From Thermoplasmata archaeon (GTDB lineage Archaea > Thermoplasmatota > Thermoplasmata > Lutacidiplasmatales > UBA184), in the NCBI GenBank assembly GCA_035297105.1, contig DATGZO010000012.1:63822-127821 (forward strand): DNA of 64,000 nt, in the 5' to 3' direction. The position numbers and the translations under genes are program-made. The notes beneath the pieces were generated by a model. It made no database searches. It was not told where the DNA came from and worked only from the letters and a program-made list of their open reading frames with translations. How positions within the stretch are numbered: position 1 is the stretch's first letter; each line of letters opens with the position of its first letter. This document shows positions 2,865 to 46,175 of the stretch, in pieces.

Positions 2865-3443
2865 TCACGGACCGCTCCGGCGGGGTCGGACGACCCGTTG
2901 GAGGGCCCGGACCGCGGGTCGCCAATCCGCCTCGATCTCGTCCTCGAGGTCAGAGAGCCCGGCGATCCCCTCGGGGAACGGGTAGAGCGACCGGGTGAGG
3001 TAGACGTGGGCGAACGCAGCGTTCGACGGCTGGGTCCAGCCTCGGTCGGCCTCGATGACCGAGTGGTACTCGTAGTATTCGGGGGCCGGGACCAACCAGA
3101 CGAGACCGTCGTCCGTGCCCCGGCCGGCGCGGGGGCCCCGCTCGACCACCCTCAGCCCCAGATAATCGATAAGAGCGGTCGGGAGGGCGAAGACGTGACG
3201 GTCCCCCGGACGGGCCGTGGCGACCAGACGGCTGCGAACCGTCTCGACCGCGAGCACCTCCCGCGCGGGATGGGTCGCGACCACCCGGGCGATCCGGGGG
3301 CCCCGGGCCAGGAAGGAGATGCTCCGACTCGTATCTCGGTGGGTCCCCTCCTCGGGTCGGTACCCGATCAGCTGGGCGACCTCCCTCGGGAGCTGGAGGC
3401 TCAGCCAGGACGGGTGCGACGCCCAGACGACGACGTACTCCAT
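2865..3443 (-). CDS. Hypothetical protein
   Basis: 192-aa ORF on the same strand as, and adjacent to, the previous hypothetical. No motif recognised. Confidence 0.4.
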   Translation of the reverse strand: MEYVVVWASHPSWLSLQLPREVAQLIGYRPEEGTHRDTSRSISFLARGPRIARVVATHPAREVLAVETVRSRLVATARPGDRHVFALPTALIDYLGLRVVERGPRAGRGTDDGLVWLVPAPEYYEYHSVIEADRGWTQPSNAAFAHVYLTRSLYPFPEGIAGLSDLEDEIEADWRPAVRALQRVVRPRRSGP

Positions 3444-4440: not shown

Positions 4441-5766
4441 CTATACGATGGGGCGCTCGTCCCTCGGCGCGTTCGCGGGGAGGGGGATCGAACTCCCGAC
4501 CGGGGGCTGCCGGCCCGGCTCCTCGCGTTCTCGTCGGGTGGGCGTGATGGCCCGGATGAACCCTTTCGCACCGATCGGGGAGACGAGGGTGGTGACGAGC
4601 CCGACCCCCGCGACGATCGTGTAGATCTGGATGGTGAAGATGTGAATGTCGAGAAGGATCACGGCCATCGCGAGCTCGACGGCGCCGCGGCTCGTCAAGA
4701 GCCACCCCGCGGCCATCGACTCCTGGGGGGACCAACCCAGGGTCCGGGTGACGGCGGAGCCGATGAGGATCTTCGAGATCAGGGCGAAGCACACGAGGAG
4801 GGCGAACACGATGACGTTCGTGGGATCGGTGAGGATCTGGGGGAAGTTCATCCCGAAGCCGACCAGGGCAAAGAAGAGCGGGATGAAGAATCCCCACGTC
4901 ACGGCTTCGAAGACGGCGCTGATCGTTCGATGTTCCCGCGTCCCGGCGCTTTCTGGCGTGATCAACATCCCGGCGTAGAAGGCCCCTACCAGGAACGTGA
5001 GTCCCAGGAACTGGGAGTAGAGGGCCGCACCGAGGCCGATCACCATCAGGAGCGCGAACCCGGCCTCCCGGGACCGCCACGTCCGCCGGAACCGTTGGAC
5101 GATCCGGTCCCAGATCCGGAGCTGCCGGAGCGCACGTAATCCCATGTGGATGGCGAGGATCGTGGTCAGGAACAGTCCCACGGTGACGCACGCGGTCGCG
5201 ATCGCGAGCAGGGGCGCCTCCCCGCTTGAGGTCACCGCGAGCAGGATGGCGAAGGCGGTCACGGCGGTCAGCTCGTTGATCACCGACGCATTGAGCAGGA
5301 ACGTGCCGAAGCGGGTGTGCATGAGGCCGAATTCCCGGAGCATGATGGCCAGCACCGGGAGCGCGGTGAGGGAGATCGTGAGAGCGATGAACAGCGAAGT
5401 GGTGGCCGGTTCCGTGGGCAGGAGGAGGCGGACGATCCCCGCCCCCGCGATGAACGGAACGAGGAAGATGGAGACCCCGAGGAGCGCTGAGGAGGGGCCG
5501 GTGGCCCAGACCGACTCGGGGCTCACCGAGAGGCCCGCCATGAGGAGGATGAAGAACGTCGCGAGGGTGAGCAGCGGCGAGAAGGAGCTCGCGACGCTGG
5601 TCAGCCCGAGGTAGGGGGCGAGCAGGCTCGGGCCGAGGACCACCCCCACGATGAGCTGGCCGACGAGGGCCACGCTCCCCAGTCGGCTGAACACCTCGCC
5701 GACGATGACGGAGCAGGTGACGAGAAGGAAGAGGCCGATGATGAACTCGGTCGTCGCGTCAACCAT
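4441..5766 (-). CDS. Monovalent cation:proton antiporter (CPA family, Na+/H+ exchanger-like)
   Basis: About 12 hydrophobic helices; Gly-rich transmembrane core typical of CPA1/CPA2 exchangers. Confidence 0.65.
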   Translation of the reverse strand: MVDATTEFIIGLFLLVTCSVIVGEVFSRLGSVALVGQLIVGVVLGPSLLAPYLGLTSVASSFSPLLTLATFFILLMAGLSVSPESVWATGPSSALLGVSIFLVPFIAGAGIVRLLLPTEPATTSLFIALTISLTALPVLAIMLREFGLMHTRFGTFLLNASVINELTAVTAFAILLAVTSSGEAPLLAIATACVTVGLFLTTILAIHMGLRALRQLRIWDRIVQRFRRTWRSREAGFALLMVIGLGAALYSQFLGLTFLVGAFYAGMLITPESAGTREHRTISAVFEAVTWGFFIPLFFALVGFGMNFPQILTDPTNVIVFALLVCFALISKILIGSAVTRTLGWSPQESMAAGWLLTSRGAVELAMAVILLDIHIFTIQIYTIVAGVGLVTTLVSPIGAKGFIRAITPTRREREEPGRQPPVGSSIPLPANAPRDERPIV

Positions 5767-9287: not shown

Positions 9288-11066
9288 GTGCAGATCCGCT
9301 ATCGGGTCGACACGGTCGCCCACGAGGGGCACCGGGGTCGATTCACGGTCGAACTGAACGGGGTGACCGATGCCTCGGTCGACCTGGTGGTCCCCTCCTG
9401 GGTCCCGGGCTCCTACCATCTCGTGAACTACGTCCGCGGGTTCCGGAACGTGACGGCTCGCGCCGGCCCCGACGGAGCCCTTCTCCCGACCGAGCGCGTG
9501 GAGTCCAGCCGGTGGAGGATCACGACCGGCGGCCACGCGGAGGTTCGGGTGGACTACACCGTCTACGGTCACGAACTGATCACGGAGGCGTTCGATCTTA
9601 CGCCGGAGCATCTATTCCTCAACGCGGCCCTGTCGCTGCCCTACGTCGAGGGCCACCTGGAGGATCCGGTCGAGGTCGAACTCCACCTCCCGCCAGACTG
9701 GCGGGTCGTCACCGAACTCGAGGAGGTCCGATCCCGACCGCCGACCTACCGGGCCCGGAACTACGACGAGCTCGTCGACAACCCGATCGACGCGGGGCAC
9801 CCGGTCGTGTTGACGATCCGCCCCCACGGGATCCCCCACCGGATCGCGATCTGCGGGGAGGGGGGCAACTACGAGGCGCACCGATTGGAAGAGGACTTGG
9901 GGAAGATCGTCGACGCCGCGATCCGGCTCATGGGCGATTCCCCTCTCACGGGGTACACCTTCTTCGTCCACCTGACCGACGTCCCGGACGGGGGCCTGGA
10001 GCATGGCGCCTCGAACTCGTCGGTGGTCCACCGAACGACCTTCGAGCCGCGAGAGCGGTACGAGCGGTTCCTCGGGCTCGAGAGCCACGAGTACTTTCAC
10101 CTGTACAACGTCAAGCGGATCCGGCCGAAGGTCCTGGGCCCGTTCGACTACACTCGAGAGAATTACACCCGCCTGCTCTGGTGGATGGAGGGAACGACCG
10201 ACTACTTCTCGGACCTCGTCCTCCGACGGGCGGACCTGTTGTCCCCCACCCGGTTCCTCGAGGAGTCCGCCAAGATCGCGAAGCTCCTCTTGGAATCTCC
10301 CGGTCGCCGGTTGCTCTCGCTGGAAGAGCTCTCGCAGATCACCTGGGTCGACTACTACAAACCGTACGAGGAATCCCCGAACCAATCGGTCTCGTACTAC
10401 ACCAAGGGCTACGTGGTCTCCCTCTGCCTCGACCTCGAGATCCGGCACCGGAGCGAGACGCGCGCCTCGATCGAGTCGGTCATGCGCCTCCTCTGGAAGG
10501 AGTACGGTCAGCCGGGGCGAGGGCTTGCGGAGGGCGAGCTCCAGCCGGTCGCCGAGCGGGCCACGGGTCTGGAGCTCGGCGAGTTCTTCGACCGGTACGT
10601 CCGGGGGACGGCCGAGCTCGACCTCGACCACTTCGCGGGGTACGCGGGCCTCACGTTCGGACCGAAACCGAAGCCCTCGGACGACCCGAGCCCCGAGGCG
10701 GGCTACCTGGGGATCCGCCACCGCGACGTGGGGGGTTTCGTGAAGGTCACGCACGTCCTCCTGGACACGCCCGCGCACCGGGCGGGGGTGAGCCCCGGCG
10801 ACGAGATCGTCGCCGTGAACGGCAACAAGGTCGCGGCCTCCTCCTTCGTGAAGGACCTCGAGGCGTACCCGCCCGGCACGCCCCTCGACCTCGCGGTCTT
10901 CCGACGGGGGTTCCTGCGCCACATTCCGCTGACCTCGGGGTCCCCTCCGCCCGAGAAGTACCGGTTCGCGTCGCTCGAAACGACCACCGACCTCGGAAAG
11001 AAGGTCTACCAGGCCTGGATCGGGGTCCCCTGGGAGCCCGCGAAGCCGGCCGCTACGAACCGGTAG
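9288..11066 (+). CDS. M61-family glycyl aminopeptidase with C-terminal PDZ domain
   Basis: Zinc motif 'HEYFHLYNV' (HExxH) plus downstream Glu. C-terminal 'GYLGI...VSPGDEIVAVNGNKV' PDZ-like. Confidence 0.7.
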   Translation: MQIRYRVDTVAHEGHRGRFTVELNGVTDASVDLVVPSWVPGSYHLVNYVRGFRNVTARAGPDGALLPTERVESSRWRITTGGHAEVRVDYTVYGHELITEAFDLTPEHLFLNAALSLPYVEGHLEDPVEVELHLPPDWRVVTELEEVRSRPPTYRARNYDELVDNPIDAGHPVVLTIRPHGIPHRIAICGEGGNYEAHRLEEDLGKIVDAAIRLMGDSPLTGYTFFVHLTDVPDGGLEHGASNSSVVHRTTFEPRERYERFLGLESHEYFHLYNVKRIRPKVLGPFDYTRENYTRLLWWMEGTTDYFSDLVLRRADLLSPTRFLEESAKIAKLLLESPGRRLLSLEELSQITWVDYYKPYEESPNQSVSYYTKGYVVSLCLDLEIRHRSETRASIESVMRLLWKEYGQPGRGLAEGELQPVAERATGLELGEFFDRYVRGTAELDLDHFAGYAGLTFGPKPKPSDDPSPEAGYLGIRHRDVGGFVKVTHVLLDTPAHRAGVSPGDEIVAVNGNKVAASSFVKDLEAYPPGTPLDLAVFRRGFLRHIPLTSGSPPPEKYRFASLETTTDLGKKVYQAWIGVPWEPAKPAATNR

Positions 11067-36026: not shown

Positions 36027-38495
36027 ATGGCGCGCCGTATTTTGGTTTTGGGCCTGGCCGTACTGCTGATCGTATCGACCCTGATGGTGCTCGGCACCGG
36101 AGGGAGCCGCGCCCAGGTCGCGCCGCTGGCTCCGCCTTCCGCGGCCCCGCATCCCGCGGCCCCGCATCCGTCGGTCAACTCCATCCAGGTCGAAACGTAC
36201 GAAGGGAACGACGTCTACTACAACGACACGTACTTCGCGAGCGGGGGATACAACTACCCCGGCGAGAACATCCTCTTCTTTTGGGTCTATGACCCCACGG
36301 CCGACTCGAGGCTGAACTTCACGCTCAGCGACCCGAACGCGTCCCGCGACGGCGTGGGCTCCCCCGCGTTCACCGTCAACGTCCCGCTGAACACCACCAC
36401 CCATGAGTACTTCTCCTACCTCGCCGGCGTTTCCTACACCTTCCCCTCGTCCCTCGCGATCGGCGGGACCTGGGTCGTGAACGCCTCCGCCCCGCTCGGC
36501 GGCTCGGCCCAGTACAACATCACCGTCGCGACGTTCGGTTCCGACATGAGCGGGAGCCCGCGACCGTACACCGGTGTTCTCCCGGGCGAGTCGATCACCG
36601 CGGCCTGGCAACTGTACAATCTCGTGAACGGAGCGTACGCCACTCACGTCACCAACCTCGCCCTGGACGGCTGGTATTACTCCAACGGGAGCTACCACAA
36701 CCTGTTCCCGGGCGGCATCGTCAACGTCTCCGTCTCGGCGGCCGGGGACTACACCTTCACGGTTCCGGCGAACGCCTCCGTCACCACCTACCTGTACTTC
36801 GACCTCTGGCCGACGATCATCTCCAACGGGAAGTTGGCCGAGAACGAGAGCGACGAGATCTGGTGGGGTGTGGGCTCCGTGGACCTCCAGGTCGAGCAGG
36901 AGACCGAATACAATGGGGTCTGCCCCACGGGGTACGACAGCAGCTACTACTCGGGCTCCCTGGTCCAGGTCTGCGCCACGGTGGGCGCGCTCTGGAACGA
37001 TGAGCTCTACGGGGTACCCAACCTGCCCGTCTCGATCCACTTCTGGAACGGCCTGAGCGTCGTCACGCCCGGCGGAAGCCCCCCGACGACGCTGATGAGC
37101 AACTCGACCGGCAAGGTCTCGTTCTCCTACCTCGCGACCAGCCCGCCGCTCACGAGCGAGTACGTGTACCCCTACGAGAACTACCTGAACCTCTCGGTCA
37201 CCGACCCGGTCGCGACCTCCCCTACCTCCGACTGGTCGAAGTGGTCCAACACGTCGCTCTACGTGGACGTGAATGGAGCGACCGGAGGGGTAGCAGTCCA
37301 GCTCAACCAACTCGAATACTATCCCGGCCAGACCGTGACGGCCACCTGGAGCCTAAGTTCCACCAACACCGCTCAGACCGGCACGCTCACCGCCGTGGGC
37401 TGGTATGCGTACAACGAGCAGACCGACGCCTTCCTCGCCCAGGGGATGATCTCTTCGACCGCGTCGACCGGAACCTTCAACGTCGCGCTCCCGACGGGCT
37501 TCGTCGGTCCCTTCGTCGTCGAAGTGTACGCGGTCAACGCCACCACATCGTTCTACGGGGAGGCGTACGGGTACTCGACCACCCCGCGCCTGTTCCTCAA
37601 CCCGAGCTCGACCACGTTCACGCCCGGCTCGACCGTGACCATCACGGCGGAAGCGTACGGGGACGCCGCACTCACCGGGGCGACCATCACGTACCAGGTG
37701 TGGGCCAGTTTCGACCTCGGCAGGAACTACGGGAACTATGGGATCGTCGAGACCGGGACCGTCGCGAACAACACCGCGTTCACGATCGCCGTTCCGTCGT
37801 CCGCGGCCCCCGGCTACTACGAGGTCTACGGCTACTTGGGCTCGACCGCCTCCGGAATCGTGGCCAGCGATGAGCTGGAGATCGACCAGGTGTGGGGGTA
37901 CTACGTCACCTTGGGAGTGAACACCGCCTCGAGCTACTCCGATGGAAGCTACCAGCCGGGGCAGACCCTGACGGTCGCCTTCCAGATCACCCCGTACGGG
38001 AACGCACCTCTGCCGGTGTTGTACACCTTCTATGTCGATCTCAACGGCGCACAGATCTACGACCAGCTGTCGTCCGCGAGCACCTCCGGAACCTTCCAGA
38101 TCACGATCCCCTCGGGGCAACCGAGCGGGATCGCCTTCCTGGAACTGGAGTTGGACGGAACGTACCTCTCCGGCAACTCGTGCGGCAGCGGCTACTGCTA
38201 CGGGGAGACGGCGATCACCATCAACGCGCACCCGTCCGTCCTGAGCATGGAGGTCGGAGGGAACAGCGGCATCACGGTCGGCTGGCTGATCCTCCTGATC
38301 GTGATCCTCGTGGTGGCGGTCGTGCTGGCGCTCCTGATCCGGCGGAAGAAGACGCCGCCCTCCTCCGGAGGGGCCTCGACCACGACCCCGATGTCGCCGC
38401 CCGCGCCCGCTCCTTCGGGAACGGGGGCCCAGGAGTGGAGTGAGCCGGCCCCGAACCAGCCACCCATGCCGACCCCTCCGCCGGGCAGCACCTAG
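36027..38495 (+). CDS. Large cell-surface glycoprotein (signal peptide, many N-glycosylation sequons, C-terminal TM anchor and Pro/Thr-rich tail)
   Basis: N-terminal 'MARRILVLGLAVLLIVSTLMVLG'. More than 25 NxS/T sequons. C-terminal 'ITVGWLILLIVILVVAVVLALLIRRKK' followed by a PT-rich tail. Confidence 0.7.
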   Translation: MARRILVLGLAVLLIVSTLMVLGTGGSRAQVAPLAPPSAAPHPAAPHPSVNSIQVETYEGNDVYYNDTYFASGGYNYPGENILFFWVYDPTADSRLNFTLSDPNASRDGVGSPAFTVNVPLNTTTHEYFSYLAGVSYTFPSSLAIGGTWVVNASAPLGGSAQYNITVATFGSDMSGSPRPYTGVLPGESITAAWQLYNLVNGAYATHVTNLALDGWYYSNGSYHNLFPGGIVNVSVSAAGDYTFTVPANASVTTYLYFDLWPTIISNGKLAENESDEIWWGVGSVDLQVEQETEYNGVCPTGYDSSYYSGSLVQVCATVGALWNDELYGVPNLPVSIHFWNGLSVVTPGGSPPTTLMSNSTGKVSFSYLATSPPLTSEYVYPYENYLNLSVTDPVATSPTSDWSKWSNTSLYVDVNGATGGVAVQLNQLEYYPGQTVTATWSLSSTNTAQTGTLTAVGWYAYNEQTDAFLAQGMISSTASTGTFNVALPTGFVGPFVVEVYAVNATTSFYGEAYGYSTTPRLFLNPSSTTFTPGSTVTITAEAYGDAALTGATITYQVWASFDLGRNYGNYGIVETGTVANNTAFTIAVPSSAAPGYYEVYGYLGSTASGIVASDELEIDQVWGYYVTLGVNTASSYSDGSYQPGQTLTVAFQITPYGNAPLPVLYTFYVDLNGAQIYDQLSSASTSGTFQITIPSGQPSGIAFLELELDGTYLSGNSCGSGYCYGETAITINAHPSVLSMEVGGNSGITVGWLILLIVILVVAVVLALLIRRKKTPPSSGGASTTTPMSPPAPAPSGTGAQEWSEPAPNQPPMPTPPPGST

Positions 38496-38594: not shown

Positions 38595-39569
38595 TCAGGG
38601 AACAAAGTCTCGTCCCAGTGCTCGAACCGAGCCGACCGCGTCGTCGATCGGGAGTCCCCCGAAATCGAAGATCCCCAGGACCTCGTCAACGCCCGCCGCC
38701 CGGTACGCGTCCAATCGGTGGGCGACCTCCGAAGGGGTGCCCAGGAGCGCGAGGTTGGCCGCCTCGAGGCCCGCCCGGCTGGCCTCGTGCGGATGGTGGG
38801 CGGCCTTCGCCTGGTAGAAGGTGCTCTGCGTGCGCAGGCGGCTGGAAAGGAACCGGTCGAGCGCCTCGCGGGCCCGTTCGGGGTGATCGCCGGCATACAG
38901 ATGGACCGCGACGGCGACCTCGGCCCGACTTCCGTTCGGTAGGGCGGCCCGGAACTCCCGGATCTCTTCCGCCAGTTCCTCCACCCCCGAGACGGTCGCG
39001 TACGGGATGAGGGCGAGCGAGACGCCCCTCTGGGCGACGAACGGGATCGCTTCGCGGCGCTGCACCGCGATCCACAGCGGGGGGTGGGGAGTTTGGACCG
39101 GCAGGACGTTCAGGCGCACCGGAGGGGCGCCGGGCCCGCCGATGCGGACCTCTCGACCGGCCATCAATTCCAGGATCGTGGTGTACGCGGCGTCGAACCG
39201 TTCGTGCCGCGACGCCGGATCAATCCCGAATCCCTCGAACTCGGTCGGGATGTAGCCGCTGCCCAGGCCCAAGTTGACCCGCCCACCCATCATCCGGTCC
39301 AGGAGGGAGTACTCCTCCGCCACGTCCACCGGTCGGTGGAACGGGAGGACGCTCACGAGCGCACCCAGGCGCAGTCGTCGGGTCCGCGCCCCGCATGCGG
39401 CGAGAAGTACCGGCGGAGATGGGCAGACCCCGGCGGGGTTGAAATGGTGCTCGGCGACCCAGAGTCCGGACAGTCCGGCTTCCTCGGCGGCTCCGGCCAG
39501 TTCGAGGATGTCCCGGTACCGATCCCGTCCGGGGACCTCGTCGACGATCGAGAAGACCGAGAGTTTCAC
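38595..39569 (-). CDS. LLM-class flavin/F420-dependent oxidoreductase (luciferase-like monooxygenase family)
   Basis: 'LSGLWVAEHHF' and 'LGLGSGY' motifs typical of the LLM TIM-barrel; 324 aa. Confidence 0.7.
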   Translation of the reverse strand: MKLSVFSIVDEVPGRDRYRDILELAGAAEEAGLSGLWVAEHHFNPAGVCPSPPVLLAACGARTRRLRLGALVSVLPFHRPVDVAEEYSLLDRMMGGRVNLGLGSGYIPTEFEGFGIDPASRHERFDAAYTTILELMAGREVRIGGPGAPPVRLNVLPVQTPHPPLWIAVQRREAIPFVAQRGVSLALIPYATVSGVEELAEEIREFRAALPNGSRAEVAVAVHLYAGDHPERAREALDRFLSSRLRTQSTFYQAKAAHHPHEASRAGLEAANLALLGTPSEVAHRLDAYRAAGVDEVLGIFDFGGLPIDDAVGSVRALGRDFVP

Positions 39570-39703: not shown

Positions 39704-39777
39704 GGGCTGGTAGATCAGTTCGGAAGATCGCCGGTTTTGCAAACCGGAGGTCTCGGGTTCAAATCCCGACCAGTCCA
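39704..39777 (+). tRNA. tRNA-Ala (anticodon UGC)
   Basis: Acceptor GGGCTGG/CCAGTCC with G3:U70 (the Ala identity pair). D-stem GATC/GATC. Anticodon stem CCGGT/ACCGG with loop TTTGCAA. T-arm TCGGG-TTCAAAT-CCCGA. Confidence 0.85.
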
Positions 39778-39833
39778 TTGAGCCAACGGCGTGCGGCAGC
39801 GTCGGCATCGATCCGGAACGCGTAAGTGCCGGA

Positions 39834-40169
39834 ATGACCATTCCCCGCCTCGGAGGCACCATGCCACTGCTGCGCGAGGCGCGGTCCAGACTTCTGAGCC
39901 GCGTGTTCTGGTCCATTCTTGCGGTCGGTGTGGTGTTGATTCTGGTGGCGGCCGTACTGTACATTCACCCTGTCTGCACGGGCCCCTACCCTTGCCCCCC
40001 GGCCCAACCGTGCTCCACGCCCCCCGTCGGGTGCACGATCGATCCCGCCGCGGCTGTTGTTGCATTCGCCGGACTGCTTCTGATCGTGATGGGAGTTGGC
40101 GGATCGCTCGCCGTCCGTCGTCCCCGGGCTCCGCTCAGGGAACCGAATCCCCCGTCGACAATCGACTAG
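39834..40169 (+). CDS. Small Cys/Pro-rich membrane protein
   Basis: 'VFWSILAVGVVLILVAAVLYI' and 'AAAVVAFAGLLLIVMGVGGSLAV' TM segments flank 'CTGPYPCPPAQPCSTPPVGC'. Lies between tRNA-Ala and its partial 3' duplicate. Confidence 0.35.
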   Translation: MTIPRLGGTMPLLREARSRLLSRVFWSILAVGVVLILVAAVLYIHPVCTGPYPCPPAQPCSTPPVGCTIDPAAAVVAFAGLLLIVMGVGGSLAVRRPRAPLREPNPPSTID

Positions 40170-40217
40170 ATTCATTGAGGTTCGAATCCGGCGGATTCGA
40201 GTGACGGGGTCTGCTCC

Positions 40218-40235
40218 GGAGGAGCAAATCCCGAC
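40218..40235 (+). repeat. 18-nt direct repeat identical to the tRNA-Ala 3' end (CAAATCCCGACCAGTCCA); att-like integration scar
   Basis: Read directly: 39760-39777 (T-loop through discriminator of tRNA-Ala) is repeated at 40218-40235 in the same orientation. The short flank 'CATTGAG' is also shared. Confidence 0.6.
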
Positions 40236-40467
40236 CAGTCCATCCACCACTCCTCGAGGACGGATCCGCGGATCCGGATGTCGATCGTCGGCCCCCGACA
40301 CACGAGGTCAGGATCGGTCAGCGTAAGAACCCGACTCGGGTCGACATGACTCCGACGTCAGGTCCCGTGCCCGAACCTGGGCCACCGGCACGCGCTCCGC
40401 GATCGCTCCGTCTCCCCGGGCAGGATCACCGCGACCAGGAGTCCGTACCGCTCGCGTCGGCGCAAGG

Positions 40468-41181
40468 CTAGACGAACACGAGTTCGAAGGCTTCCTGACC
40501 GTTCGGATACTCCTTGGTTCGGACTACTTTCCGGTCGAGCCGGATCCCCGCCGCCTCGAGCGCCGCGGTATCCCGTTCGAGAGCGCTGCCCAGGTAGACG
40601 TTGAGGATTGTCTGGTGGGCTAACGCGCCCTCGACCATCCGGGTCGCCCCCACGATCGGGCTTCCGACGATCGTCAGGAGCTCCCCTACCCGCACGAGCT
40701 CGCATGGGCCGGCGTCGATCCCTATCGACAACCCCGTTCCGGCGGGGAAGTTTCGGGAGTTCCGGCGTAAGTTGGCCAGAAGGGAGTCGGCCGCCGAGAG
40801 CGCGGTGCGGCAGAAGTCCGGGATCGTTCCGATGTCGGCCGGACGCTCTCGTGGGGGGATCCAAAAGGCGACGAATCCGTCCCCGGTGAACTTGTCGAAC
40901 CAGCCCCCAGAGGAGTTCGCCAGCGCTCGGACCGCCTCGGTGAACCCCACGATGAATCGAGCGAAAACGGACGGTTGCACCGCTTCCTTCAGGACGAGAG
41001 TGGACATCCGAAGGTCGCCGACGACCACGATCGCTTCCACGGCGGTGGATCCCATGGAGACGAGCTCCTGGATCGCCTCGGCGGAGAGCTGTTCGCGGGC
41101 ACTCTCCGGTCCCTGGCGAAGAAGGAGCGCGTCGAACTCGGTGGTCCCGCCTTCATCGGCGCTAGAAGGGAGTTCGAACAT
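40468..41181 (-). CDS. Class-III nucleotidyl (adenylyl/guanylyl) cyclase-homology-domain protein, standalone
   Basis: 'VVVGDLRMSTL' (metal Asp, F-x-D-I-x-G-F-T-like). 'DKFTGDGFVAFW' matches K-T-I-G-D-A-Y-M-A-V-F, including the base-specifying Lys. 'IGIDAGPCELVRVG...IVGATRM' matches the GxHxGPVVAG...TASRME region. A Thg1-like alternative was considered and is less favoured. Confidence 0.55.
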   Translation of the reverse strand: MFELPSSADEGGTTEFDALLLRQGPESAREQLSAEAIQELVSMGSTAVEAIVVVGDLRMSTLVLKEAVQPSVFARFIVGFTEAVRALANSSGGWFDKFTGDGFVAFWIPPRERPADIGTIPDFCRTALSAADSLLANLRRNSRNFPAGTGLSIGIDAGPCELVRVGELLTIVGSPIVGATRMVEGALAHQTILNVYLGSALERDTAALEAAGIRLDRKVVRTKEYPNGQEAFELVFV

Positions 41182-41440
41182 GAGGCGTTCCCCAGGGCTG
41201 GACCCGTGGCCGTGAACGTGGTCCGGGACTTCAGCTTGAGCCCCGTCTCGGTAGATTCGTGGCCCTCGTTGGCCCGACCACCGGTTGGGCCCCTTCGCGG
41301 ATGTGCCTGCGGAATCTTCAGGGAGACATTCGCCGTCCAGCGGACGACGGATTCGGGGAGGGCGGCGCTATCGAACCCATCTCGTCACGAGAGCGCTGAT
41401 CTGCCCGAGCCTGCGGATCCGGTTCTGCAGGGGGCGGAAC

Positions 41441-41710
41441 TCAGCCTCCGCTACCGCCGGTGTGCACGGCGCCGGACCCACCCGTATGCTCCTCACCCGA
41501 ATCGGTCACCGCGCCGCAGGCGGGGCAGATCGTGGCATTCGTCGGCAGGGGTCTATGACAGTTCGAACACAACACCGGACTCGTCACGCCTTCGGGGAAC
41601 CCGAGGGCTCTCATGAACGTGGCGGGGGTCGATTCGAACCGGGGGCGACGAACTCGGCCCCGGGCAACTCCGGGGGCGGCAGGGGCCGGAGGGATTTCGA
41701 CCCGTTTCAT
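41441..41710 (-). CDS. Small zinc-ribbon protein
   Basis: 'CSNCHRPLPTNATICPACG' CxxC...CxxC, Gly-rich tail. Divergent from nre. True start may be the internal Met. Confidence 0.35.
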   Translation of the reverse strand: MKRVEIPPAPAAPGVARGRVRRPRFESTPATFMRALGFPEGVTSPVLCSNCHRPLPTNATICPACGAVTDSGEEHTGGSGAVHTGGSGG

Positions 41711-44128: not shown

Positions 44129-45325
44129 CTAGAAAACGGACAACTTCCCGGTCAACAGAAGCTTCGGGATGGTGTCGATCTGCTCGAACCACGAGTTCGC
44201 GACCGCCTCGGCCGTCGGCTTGACCTGGGCGAGCTTCACGCCGCTCGCGGGGAGGATCTGCAGGCTCGCGACCTGGGGTTCGTCGACCGGTTTGCCGATC
44301 TGCGAAAGGATCCGGACGTGGACCTCCTTGACGTTCCCGCCGGTCTCCTTCACGATGTCGCCCGCGATCAGGTTCCCGAGCAGGTTGTAGATCTTCCCCA
44401 CGTGGTTGATGGGGTTCTTTCCGGCCGAGGCTTCCAGGCTCATCGGTCGGCAGGGCGTGATCAACCCATTGGCGCGGTTGCCGCGTCCCACGGAGCCGTC
44501 GTCGCCTGCTTCCATCGAGCAGCCGGTGACCGTGAGGTAGTACCGGCCGAGCTCGGGGTCGTCCGCCGTGTTCACGTCGATCTGGACCTCGCGGTGCGTC
44601 AGCTTGGCGGCCTGGTCCGCGAGCTTCTCCGTGATCTGGGCGCAGACGTTCTGGTAGGCGTCGCCGTCGGAGATCTCCCGGTCGACGAGCGCGGCGGCGA
44701 CCGTGAGGTGGATCTGGTTCCCCGAGCGGTAGCCCATCACTTTGACGTCCTCCCCGAGCGCAGGGAGCTTCTTCTTCAGCTTCAGGGTCAGGAATCGCTC
44801 GCTCTCGAGCACGAGGCGCTCCAGGTCGGAGAGGGGCGCGAAACCGACGCCGAAGGAGGTGTCGTTGGAGAGGACCGTCTTCTGCTCGAAGACCCCACGG
44901 AGGTCGATCGAGCCCGACCCGATCTTGGAATCGAACTCGACATCGTGCTCCAAGTCGATGTGGGAACAGACGGATCCCACGTACTTCTTGGCCGCCTCGA
45001 TCGCGGTGTCGTGGATGGGCAATTTCTCCTTGTTGACCTCGGTGGTCGCTCGGCCGACCAAGAGCATGTAGATCGGCTTCGTGACCTTCCCGCCGCCGAA
45101 CTTCGGCTCGGAGGCCCCCCCGACGACCTGGGTCTCGTCCGTGTTGTGGTGGAGGATCCTCCCGAACTCGTCGAGGTAGAGGCGACAGAGCGCCCGGCTG
45201 ACCGATTCCGAGACCCCGTCCGCGATCGAGTCGGGGTGCCCGAGGCCCTTCCGCTCGACCAGCTCGACGGCCTGGTCTTCGATATGGACGGTGCGCAGTG
45301 GCTCCACCTGAACGTTTCGGGCCAT
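44129..45325 (-). CDS. mat: S-adenosylmethionine synthetase, archaeal type
   Basis: '[11 protein letters not shown]' and overall archaeal MAT architecture, about 398 aa from the ATG at 45325. The upstream part of the track ORF is artefact. Confidence 0.8.
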
Positions 45326-45442
45326 GGGGGTACTCGAGGTCGGCCGAGACGGGGTGGGGTTTAACCCTTGCGAGATGGCGGGGATGCACGCCACTTGCGT
45401 CCGGGGAAACCCGGGACGGTGGCCCTCCCGGGTCCTCTCGGA

Positions 45443-45462
45443 CAGGCCTATAGCAGGCCCCG
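45443..45462 (+). promoter_or_regulatory. TATA-like element within an inverted repeat (AGGCCTATAGCAGGCC), about 25 bp upstream of the GcvH-TusA start
   Basis: Read directly: GGCCT ... AGGCC arms around CTATAG. Lies in the mat / gcvH-tusA divergent intergenic region. Confidence 0.35.
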
Positions 45463-45476
45463 TACCTCCCCGAGGC

Positions 45477-46175
45477 GTGGAGATCGCGGGATGTCCCCTG
45501 CCTGAGGATCGGTTATACAACCTCGAGCACGACGTCTGGTGGTCCCCCGAGGGTGACACGGCCCGAGTCGGCGTGCTCGGCACCCTCGCGGCCTTTGCCG
45601 GGCCGTTCGTCTCGTTCTCCTTCCGCCCGGTCGAGGGCGTCGTGGCCCGGGGTCGGAGCATCGCGACCGTCGAGAGCATGCGGTACACCGGAGCGGTCCG
45701 GCTCCCGGTGGAAGCCGAGATCCTCGAGAGGAATCCCGCGGTGCGGGAACGCCCCCGGCTCCTGAACGATGCCCCTTACGGCGAGGGATGGGTCGCGCGG
45801 GTCCGACCGACCCAGGCGGACGAGGTGCCGCGGTACCTCGAAACCGCGGCCCAGGTGGCGACCCGTCTCGAAGAACGGATCCGCACCCAGCGGATCCGCT
45901 GCTGGCCCGCCACCCCGGACCTCGAGCTGTACGAGATCGGGATCGAATGTTCCGCCGTGCTCACCATGCTCAACGAGGAGCTCGCCCGGCGACCGCCGGG
46001 GGCCCACATCCTTCTCGTGACCGACGACCCGACCAGCCCGATCGAGATGGTCCGCTGGTCCGACCAGACCGGCTACCCGGTCCTGGCCCGGCGCGACGAG
46101 GGCACGCTCCACCAGTTCCTCGTCCGCAAGGACCCGGATCCGAGGCCCCGCGTGCGACGCGGGTCATCGCTCTGA
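45477..46175 (+). CDS. Fusion protein: glycine-cleavage-H-like lipoyl-carrier domain + TusA-like sulfur-carrier domain
   Basis: N-terminal 'YNLEHDVWW...GVLGTLAAFAGPFVSFSF...ESMRYTGAVRLPVEAEILERN...NDAPYGEGWVARVRPT' follows the GcvH pattern (HEW, lipoyl-Lys region, PYGEGW). C-terminal 'IRCWPATPDLELYE...HILLVTDDPTSPIEMVRWSDQTGYPV' is TusA/SirA-like (CPxP-type Cys). GTG start at 45477 inferred. Confidence 0.55.
   Translation: MEIAGCPLPEDRLYNLEHDVWWSPEGDTARVGVLGTLAAFAGPFVSFSFRPVEGVVARGRSIATVESMRYTGAVRLPVEAEILERNPAVRERPRLLNDAPYGEGWVARVRPTQADEVPRYLETAAQVATRLEERIRTQRIRCWPATPDLELYEIGIECSAVLTMLNEELARRPPGAHILLVTDDPTSPIEMVRWSDQTGYPVLARRDEGTLHQFLVRKDPDPRPRVRRGSSL

Follow-up and report, generated by a model that had tools for sequence, protein, structure and literature searches.

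A predicted minimal class III nucleotidyl cyclase of an uncharacterised subfamily in soil Thermoplasmata, with a stand-alone cNMP-binding partner in some genomes

Archaea are known to contain 3',5'-cAMP as well as other cNMPs, and according to a 2023 review no archaeal enzyme for their synthesis, degradation or binding had been characterised; the annotated archaeal class IV (CYTH) "cyclases" are triphosphatases (PMC10249747). Our literature searches likewise found no characterised archaeal cNMP synthase, phosphodiesterase or receptor. The described systems that come closest to the protein considered here include the class IIIb cyclases CyaB of P. aeruginosa (PDB 3r5g) and CyaC of Spirulina (1wc0/1wc1), and the sAC-like group; in CyaB and CyaC the catalytic domain is part of a larger protein. 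Ma1120 of Mycobacterium avium (PDB 4wp3 and others) is by comparison a minimal adenylyl cyclase, small and with a single cyclase-homology domain (CHD), in which the transition-state Asn is naturally replaced by the small hydrophobic Ala164 and the Arg is kept; the enzyme is active, and the A164N substitution lowered its activity (PMC4215837). The PycC enzymes (AnPycC 8jsz, EaPycC 8jsf, BcPycC 7r65 and PaPycC 6yii) carry the residue sets Y50/D94/R97, F60/K104/F109 and F100/R142/Q144 (PMC11224242), and the Pucsar cGMP cyclases are related to them. Immune cyclase clades have been reported to be fast-evolving and effector-linked (Pucsar preprint 10.64898/2026.08.12.744502). A further point of comparison is offered by the cAMP pairs in which a cyclase acts with CRP, PKA-R or MloK1.

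The gene described here lies in a 64-kb stretch of archaeal DNA, referred to as the window, the composition of which agrees with Ca. Lutacidiplasmatales, a group of acid-soil Thermoplasmatota whose genomes measure about 2 Mb at a GC content of 67-71% (PMC9287336). The features of the gene, its product and its surroundings are as follows.

39703/4-39777/8, plus strand: tRNA-Ala(TGC), found by ARAGORN and Rfam (RF00005, 67.4 bits); context, outside the cyclase unit
39834-40169: hydrophobic membrane ORF of 111 aa, without a CNBD
40225-40243, plus strand: att-like 19-nt exact duplicate of the tRNA-Ala 3' end
40468-41181, minus strand: cyclase gene, encoding a predicted single-domain class III nucleotidyl cyclase of 237 aa
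41228-41244, minus strand: upstream non-coding motif GGCTCAAGCTGAAGTTC (tandem CTNAAG), 47-63 nt before the ATG
41441-41710: zinc-ribbon ORF of 89 aa (PF13240, E=2.3e-6)
Cyclase residues 11-43: N-terminal helices
Cyclase residues 45-210: palm/CHD core
Cyclase residues 213-236: C-terminal beta-hairpin
Cyclase residues D56 and D101: predicted metal ligands; K97 and T170: predicted base-specifying pair (aligned to solved cyclases)
Cyclase residues V177 and R181: canonical Asn position and predicted transition-state Arg

The ATG is the first possible start past the upstream stop codon, and a longer ORF is therefore impossible. The translation includes "VVVGDLRMSTL", "DKFTGDGFVAFW" and "IGIDAGPCELVRVG...IVGATRM", the three motifs on which the initial annotation had based its assignment, each exactly as it was quoted there. 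The core has the beta-alpha-alpha-beta-beta-alpha-beta palm fold of the adenylyl and guanylyl cyclase catalytic domains. Unlike CyaB and CyaC, to which it is 15-19% identical, the protein lacks a sensor or regulatory domain at its N-terminus, carries a Val in place of the ribose-orienting Asn, falls below the PF00211 threshold and is extended by three helices at the N-terminus and by a conserved beta-hairpin (TKEYPxGQE) at the C-terminus. These terminal extensions also set it apart from the bacterial Ma1120. The small zinc-ribbon and membrane ORFs that had been described beside the gene are both present, at the positions listed above, and the other neighbours in the window encode a luciferase-like oxidoreductase, an archaeal Nre protein, a protein with a transmembrane segment and a double zinc ribbon, and an archaeal AdoMet synthetase.

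Standard libraries do not recognize the protein. Scans against Pfam and NCBIfam returned nothing significant for it, and PF00211, the family against which the initial annotation had proposed to check it, gave no match at E<=10. In a set of 30 close homologues, which likewise gave nothing significant, the same model was matched by a single protein (E=0.12), and the best relatives score 16-17 bits, short of the cut-off of 21.9. Because single-sequence phmmer searches of the PDB with the window protein yielded E-values of about 0.4-0.8 only, family profiles were required to reach significance, and we ran two of these, one built from the 30 close homologues (A1) and one from a broader set of 51 sequences (A2), against the solved structures. 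CyaB was matched with an E-value of 3.7e-4 by profile A1 and of 4.6e-10 by profile A2. CyaC was also matched by A1, and A2 gave 1.9e-7 for CyaC, 6.9e-6 for Cya2 and about 1e-5 for Ma1120, as compared with 1.8e-3 and 0.72 for the solved PycC structures 8jsf and 7r65. A jackhmmer search seeded with a canonical CHD retrieved the window ORF at 1.8e-16. Thg1 was not among the top 60 matches of the family profile, and no profile or fold match to the palm enzymes Thg1, GGDEF or Cas10 was better than those to CHDs. Judged from these comparisons, the window protein is a class III cyclase-homology domain, which upholds the original assignment.

The alignments with CyaB and CyaC (HMMER) locate the predicted active site. 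D56 in "GDLRMS" aligns with the first metal Asp, and "DKFTGDG" falls on "DKFVGD", which identifies K97 as the putative adenine-specifying Lys and D101 as the putative second metal Asp. Likewise, "LTIVGSPIVGATRM" aligns with "YTIIGREVNLASRL", and thereby T170 would correspond to the class IIIb Thr and R181 to the transition-state/phosphate Arg, with V177 in place of the Asn. All six residues are invariant across the 30 close homologues. In the broad alignment (n=51), the two Asp residues are each retained in 49 sequences and R181 in all 51, the position of K97 is occupied by Lys in 41 and by Arg in 6, and T170 and V177 are kept in 43 and 48, respectively. The paired metal Asp residues, on beta1 and in the beta2-beta3 turn, and the accompanying Lys that were reported initially thus align with those of solved class III cyclases and are invariant or nearly so, and the substitution of the catalytic Asn is also confirmed, since V177 sits on the canonical position. 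In class III cyclases, the base is specified by a residue pair; for ATP, Lys is paired with Asp or Thr, and for GTP, Glu is paired with Cys, Ser, Gly and others. The pair K97/T170 is Lys/Thr, as in the class IIIb enzymes CyaB and CyaC, whereas Ma1120 has Lys/Asp. Of the transition-state Asn-Arg pair, the Arg is kept and the Asn is replaced.

It had been suggested that this substitution could alter the activity, but a change of chemistry need not follow, since the active Ma1120 carries an Ala at the same position and loss of the Asn is therefore not disqualifying. Beyond the canonical set, R58, S60, W94, D96, T99, W107, P146, D156, N194, K223, E224 and Q229 are conserved in the family, the last three of which are located in the extra C-terminal hairpin. 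The signature of the subfamily is G-W-F-D-K-F-T-G-D-G, S-R-N-F-P, V-G-A-[TV]-R-M and T-K-E-Y-P-x-G-Q-E.

Relatives with 54-97% identity occur throughout the soil Thermoplasmata (Ca. Lutacidiplasmatales). A search of 5.8 billion proteins recovered 302 close cluster representatives, and the best 120 of these are 191-352 aa long and 57-97% identical to the window protein; those among the best 120 that have an NCBI name are listed there as "hypothetical protein" and stem from Thermoplasmata MAGs, while homologues in IMG carry the label "class 3 adenylate cyclase". Among the archaeal MAGs with relatives, several (AcS, SubAcS, UBA184) are members of Ca. Lutacidiplasmatales. An exhaustive profile search of 1.84 billion cluster representatives gave 1113 matches with E<=1e-3, of which 102 reach E<=1e-30. 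In the GTDB species genomes, relatives are encoded at 222 loci, 80 of which were retrieved: 46 are from Thermoplasmata (54-88% identity) and the rest from Nitrososphaera, Actinomycetota, Rhodocyclales and Nitrosomonadales, where the proteins are full-length and about 40% identical. With 302 close cluster representatives, 222 reference genomes with relatives and an existing IMG label, the protein is not, in the family sense, the orphan that it had been stated to be. Class III cyclases, initially described as uncommon in archaea, are not rare in this lineage: 9 of the 47 related loci have canonical Guanylate_cyc genes within 10 kb. The dN/dS ratio of the cyclase gene is 0.085-0.22 at dS 0.7-1.2, and the gene is under purifying selection.

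The genes that surround the cyclase gene differ from genome to genome. The neighbours are wholly different at the nine loci for which gene calls had been deposited, and in a BLASTN comparison of the window with 13 of the closest loci the aligned part consisted of the gene and about 70-95 nt upstream of it (40466-41275; 73-82% identity); DNA similarity stops at about 41250-41275, and the flanks beyond the aligned part were unrelated in all 13. Within the conserved upstream stretch, the core AAGCTGAAGT is invariant in the seven aligned close relatives (7/7), in which indels shift its frame relative to the ATG. In about 10 loci of the closest clade the distance of the motif is constant, and more distant loci lack it. 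The motif CTCAAGCTGAAG is a candidate for a promoter or operator dedicated to the cyclase gene, and the gene is found at variable positions as a self-contained unit of putative promoter and ORF. Scans for sigma-70 promoters and intrinsic terminators, which are unsuited to archaea, returned nothing.

To survey the neighbourhoods on a common basis, we analysed 81 loci with our own gene calls, applying a codon-position GC filter (GC3>GC1>GC2). Apart from one linkage, no synteny was seen in the 9 annotated and 80 reference-genome loci in which a conserved operon was sought. The sole recurrent partner in archaea is a cNMP-binding (CNB) protein of 143-150 aa (PF00027, E 1e-17 to 1e-22) with an intact phosphate-binding cassette, FFGEMALLDEQPRTADV (G-E...R-T-A). 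Its gene is located within 10 kb of the cyclase gene in 14 of 47 Thermoplasmata loci (30%), every time on the opposite strand, and this linkage occurs in 7 of 24 cyclase clades. In six loci the two genes are adjacent and tail-to-tail, with a spacing of -52 to +161 nt, and in eight they are 4-6 kb apart, three of the latter being from the clade of the window cyclase itself. The adjacent cases cluster in neighbouring clades and may therefore represent few independent events. In the deposited gene calls of JAKIWS010000012.1, a 143-aa PF00027 gene overlaps the 3' end of the cyclase gene by 11 nt. A Pfam scan of 150 immediate neighbours identified cNMP_binding as the most frequent family (six members); TIR families were not among the most frequent. 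The CNB partner is of the purine type; its closest solved relatives are the CNB domains of PKG, PKA-R and MloK1, and PycTIR was not among its top 60 PDB matches.

In the 64-kb window itself we found no CNB gene, and the link to a receptor is therefore indirect for this genome. The initial annotation had asked whether homologues co-occur with genes for cNMP-binding effectors. The partner linked to the cyclase in 14 of 47 archaeal loci consists of a CNB domain only and has no effector domain. Canonical Guanylate_cyc(+TPR) genes are found up to 10 kb away at 9 of 47 archaeal loci and at 5 of 27 bacterial ones, with neither a fixed position nor a fixed orientation. The loci in Actinomycetota have a common SRPBCC/ArsR neighbourhood, which probably reflects their relatedness.

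It had been proposed that horizontal acquisition of the gene was plausible from its closeness to a duplicated tRNA end. The duplication is real: the last 19 nt of the tRNA-Ala gene, CAAATCCCGACCAGTCCAT at 39760-39778, are repeated exactly at 40225-40243, 225 nt from the end of the cyclase gene at its stop codon. The repeat spans those 19 nt only, with 0.02 matches expected by chance and two copies in 0 of 100 shuffles. The hypothesis that the cyclase is recently acquired cargo of an integrative element inserted at tRNA-Ala draws on this att-like repeat, on the alignment of only the gene and its short upstream stretch in the 13 loci, on the sharing of the family between archaea and bacteria, and on codon usage, as GC3 is 0.80 in the cyclase gene and 0.72-0.73 in the two flanking small ORFs compared with 0.83-0.92 in the neighbouring genes. 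The GC3 deviation is mild, however, and the regional GC content is unremarkable. The two copies bracket just 446 nt, holding only the 111-aa membrane ORF, and the cyclase gene lies outside the bracket. No third copy was detected in the window at up to three mismatches, no integrase or other mobility gene among the ORFs adjoining the cyclase gene, and no structured RNA besides the tRNA around it in Rfam searches at E<=1. IMG/VR contigs, phage genomes and plasmids contained no true relative of the family, the single partial match being to a Persicobacter megaplasmid (26% coverage), and the closest homologues are all from the same archaeal lineage. Since the gene is outside the bracket and neither an adjoining integrase nor viral or plasmid relatives were found, its arrival with a tRNA-targeting element is unsupported, and we regard recent acquisition as mobile cargo as unlikely.

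Other explanations concern what the protein does. In a Pycsar- or Pucsar-type antiviral system, infection would trigger synthesis of cUMP, cCMP or cGMP, which would activate a CNB effector and lead to abortive infection. The best library matches of the window protein in PADLOC are indeed PycC models, and such matches are present in all 30 homologues (best E 1e-8), but for the window protein the match is weak, at 24.2 bits (E=4.8e-6), and covers only residues 44-166, and the solved PycC structures rank below the class IIIb enzymes on the family profile. The 143-150-aa CNB protein is neither joined to nor flanked by an effector domain, be it TIR, 3TM or another, and it resembles the domains of PKG, PKA and MloK1 rather than the CNBDs of PycTIR. 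Next to the cyclase gene in the window, no gene was found that combines a CNBD with a TIR or a transmembrane killing domain. Six neighbours matched the "PycTIR/Effector" models of PADLOC. This equals the number of CNB-only proteins, and it is presumably through their CNBD half that the models are matched. No defence system recurred among the 150 neighbours in the PADLOC scan. The luciferase-like monooxygenase encoded at 38595-39569 in the window was considered as an effector in view of the Pucsar preprint; it is non-recurrent among the 150 neighbours and was treated as a coincidence. The family also evolves slowly, with a dN/dS of about 0.1 and 54-97% identity across an order, in contrast to the immune clades, and its Lys/Thr pair differs from the residue sets of the PycC enzymes. 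With no CNB gene in the window either, a role in antiviral defence seems improbable to us.

A loss of catalytic function could be read from the Val that replaces the transition-state Asn in 48 of 51 members. The protein might then be an impaired pseudo-cyclase, either a nucleotide-binding regulatory subunit or the heterodimeric partner of a second CHD protein such as a TPR-linked canonical cyclase, genes for which lie near some of the archaeal and bacterial loci. The fold is also known to have uses other than cyclization, given that PDB 6yii was deposited as a class III adenylyl cyclase-like ATP-binding protein. However, a single chain keeps all other catalytic residues, that is, both Asp residues, the Lys, the Thr and the Arg, so that a homodimer would carry two complete sites. 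Pseudo-subunits of cyclases usually lack the Asp residues, which are retained here, and Ma1120 is active with Ala at the position of the Asn. A second CHD gene is absent from the 64-kb window, and the canonical cyclase genes near other family members are not fixed in position or orientation. We therefore consider an inactive or auxiliary role unlikely. The assignment to another palm family, be it the Thg1-like tRNA-His guanylyltransferases, the GGDEF diguanylate cyclases or the Cas10/mCpol-type polymerases, is already effectively refuted by the profile and fold comparisons described above.

We favor the hypothesis, with a probability of roughly 0.6, that the protein is a minimal soluble class III nucleotidyl cyclase from a conserved, uncharacterised subfamily, and that it serves in physiological second-messenger signalling, most probably by converting ATP to 3',5'-cAMP. 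Two Mg2+ or Mn2+ ions would be used to cyclise the NTP, with Val177 occupying the place of the ribose-orienting Asn much like the Ala in active Ma1120, and the most probable reaction would be ATP to 3',5'-cAMP and PPi. The choice of ATP and cAMP follows from the Lys/Thr pair, the affinity to class IIIb and the PKA/PKG-like receptor, although prediction of the substrate from two residues is unreliable, given that PycC clades use differing residue sets (PMC11224242). A physiological role, as opposed to abortive-infection defence, is suggested by the slow evolution of the family together with the lack of an effector and of a defence context.

Since the cyclase has no sensor domain, its output would probably be set by transcription, through the conserved upstream motif, and/or by small ligands. 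In sAC-like cyclases, bicarbonate regulation is said to be predicted by a Thr at the second base position (PMC3383692). T170 is the corresponding residue, and control of the cyclase by CO2, HCO3- or pH is thus a speculative possibility. The likeliest reader of the signal may be the stand-alone CNB-domain protein of 143-150 aa, encoded elsewhere in the genome. The genetic linkage of a cyclase to a CNB protein in 14 of 47 archaeal loci recalls the pairs formed with CRP, PKA-R and MloK1, but the archaeal partner has no DNA-binding, kinase-binding or channel domain.

The family extends a very well known enzyme class, and new chemistry is not indicated. It is novel as a Pfam-negative and uncharacterised subfamily with a Val for the Asn, extra elements at both termini and, in some genomes, a CNB-only partner. 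As it is invisible to Pfam and NCBIfam and its members are mostly "hypothetical" at NCBI, soil archaea and Actinomycetota would be better annotated with a dedicated model.

The interest of the protein, as a candidate for an archaeal cAMP synthase, is moderate. The 237-aa soluble cyclase and the 143-aa CNB protein are a simple pair to express and test, and this pair could supply archaeal cNMP signalling with its first defined synthase and receptor. More tentatively, the family, with its Val-for-Asn centre and CNB-only receptor, could possibly be the main synthase of cAMP or another cNMP in acid-soil archaea, that is, in the Lutacidiplasmatales and some Nitrososphaera. If this is true, it would be the first tractable archaeal cNMP cyclase, with a receptor output unlike that of the CRP, PKA or channel receptors.

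The window's 237-aa class III nucleotidyl cyclase gene is preceded by a conserved non-coding motif with tandem CTNAAG hexamers, which in other genomes is located approximately 50 nt 5' of the cyclase ATG (L010-L018 and L023) and whose spacing to the gene is constant in some 10 loci from the closest clade. The "WLKLKF" N-terminal extensions of the homologous cyclases P0026 and P0034 represent the region of this motif, translated by some gene callers. The motif and the other features considered in the window are as follows.

3202-3295: predicted tRNA-Arg(GCG), 94 nt
36027-38495: 822-aa ORF whose product has a signal/TM segment at the N terminus, a TM helix at the C terminus and a Pro-rich tail
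38595-39569: luciferase-like monooxygenase gene, about 0.9 kb from the cyclase gene
39760-39778 and 40225-40243: 19-nt exact direct repeat, a duplication of the 3' end of tRNA-Ala
39779-40224: 446-nt insert between the repeats
39834-40169: 111-aa ORF with two TM segments, the sole ORF of the insert, GC3 0.73
41228-41244, minus strand: GGCTCAAGCTGAAGTTC, the conserved motif
44129-45688: over-extended 519-aa ORF for an archaeal AdoMet synthetase

Luciferase-like monooxygenases have been described as rare alternative effectors of Pucsar loci, which are cGMP-cyclase antiviral systems related to Pycsar (2026 preprint, 10.64898/2026.08.12.744502). The family did not recur among the 150 immediate neighbors of the homologous cyclases, and the closeness of the luciferase-like gene to the cyclase gene in the window is therefore probably a coincidence. 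The insert bracketed by the tRNA-Ala repeats contains no integrase and resembles what would remain of a tRNA-targeted integrative element after decay. The 822-aa ORF, with weak matches to Ig-like and GEVED domains, probably encodes a protein of the cell surface or envelope. Furthermore, the Pfam domain of the AdoMet synthetase starts only at residue 124, so that the true start of this gene is probably internal to the ORF, and the length of the predicted tRNA-Arg(GCG) suggests an archaeal tRNA gene with an intron.

In the bacterial relatives, a gene for an SRPBCC/AHSA1-domain protein was identified upstream of the cyclase gene in 18 of the 27 loci, often accompanied by an ArsR-type regulator (gene positions -1 to -3 in the Actinomycetota loci L059-L087). 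This association may reflect either a functional linkage or inherited synteny. The cyclase copy at approximately 10001-10781 in L018, on a complete Thermoplasmata chromosome (OY970259.1), appears to be N-terminally truncated or frameshifted; the ORF begins at 10176, only 81 codons align in frame and the clustered protein (P0038) has a length of 201 aa. Either pseudogenization or a fault in the assembly may account for this.

In Lutacidiplasmatales-like MAGs, the cyclase shows linkage to a protein of 143-150 aa with a stand-alone cNMP-binding domain (L020, L021, L033, L034/L090 at 4725-5156, L040 and L084, and also L011, L014, L015, L019, L043, L047, L050 and L051). Its phosphate-binding cassette is intact and it has no output domain. 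In 9 of the 47 archaeal loci, a large canonical class III cyclase is encoded no more than 10 kb from the small one. The large cyclases (L003/L004, 8744-10693; L008, 1-1767; L009, 1939-3282; further loci L015, L024, L025, L029, L035, L036, L044 and L045) are proteins of about 650-1100 aa with Guanylate_cyc and TPR domains, one being a Hydrolase_4-Guanylate_cyc fusion. The presence of large canonical cyclases near the small one suggests that the cNMP signaling repertoire has been expanded in these soil archaea.
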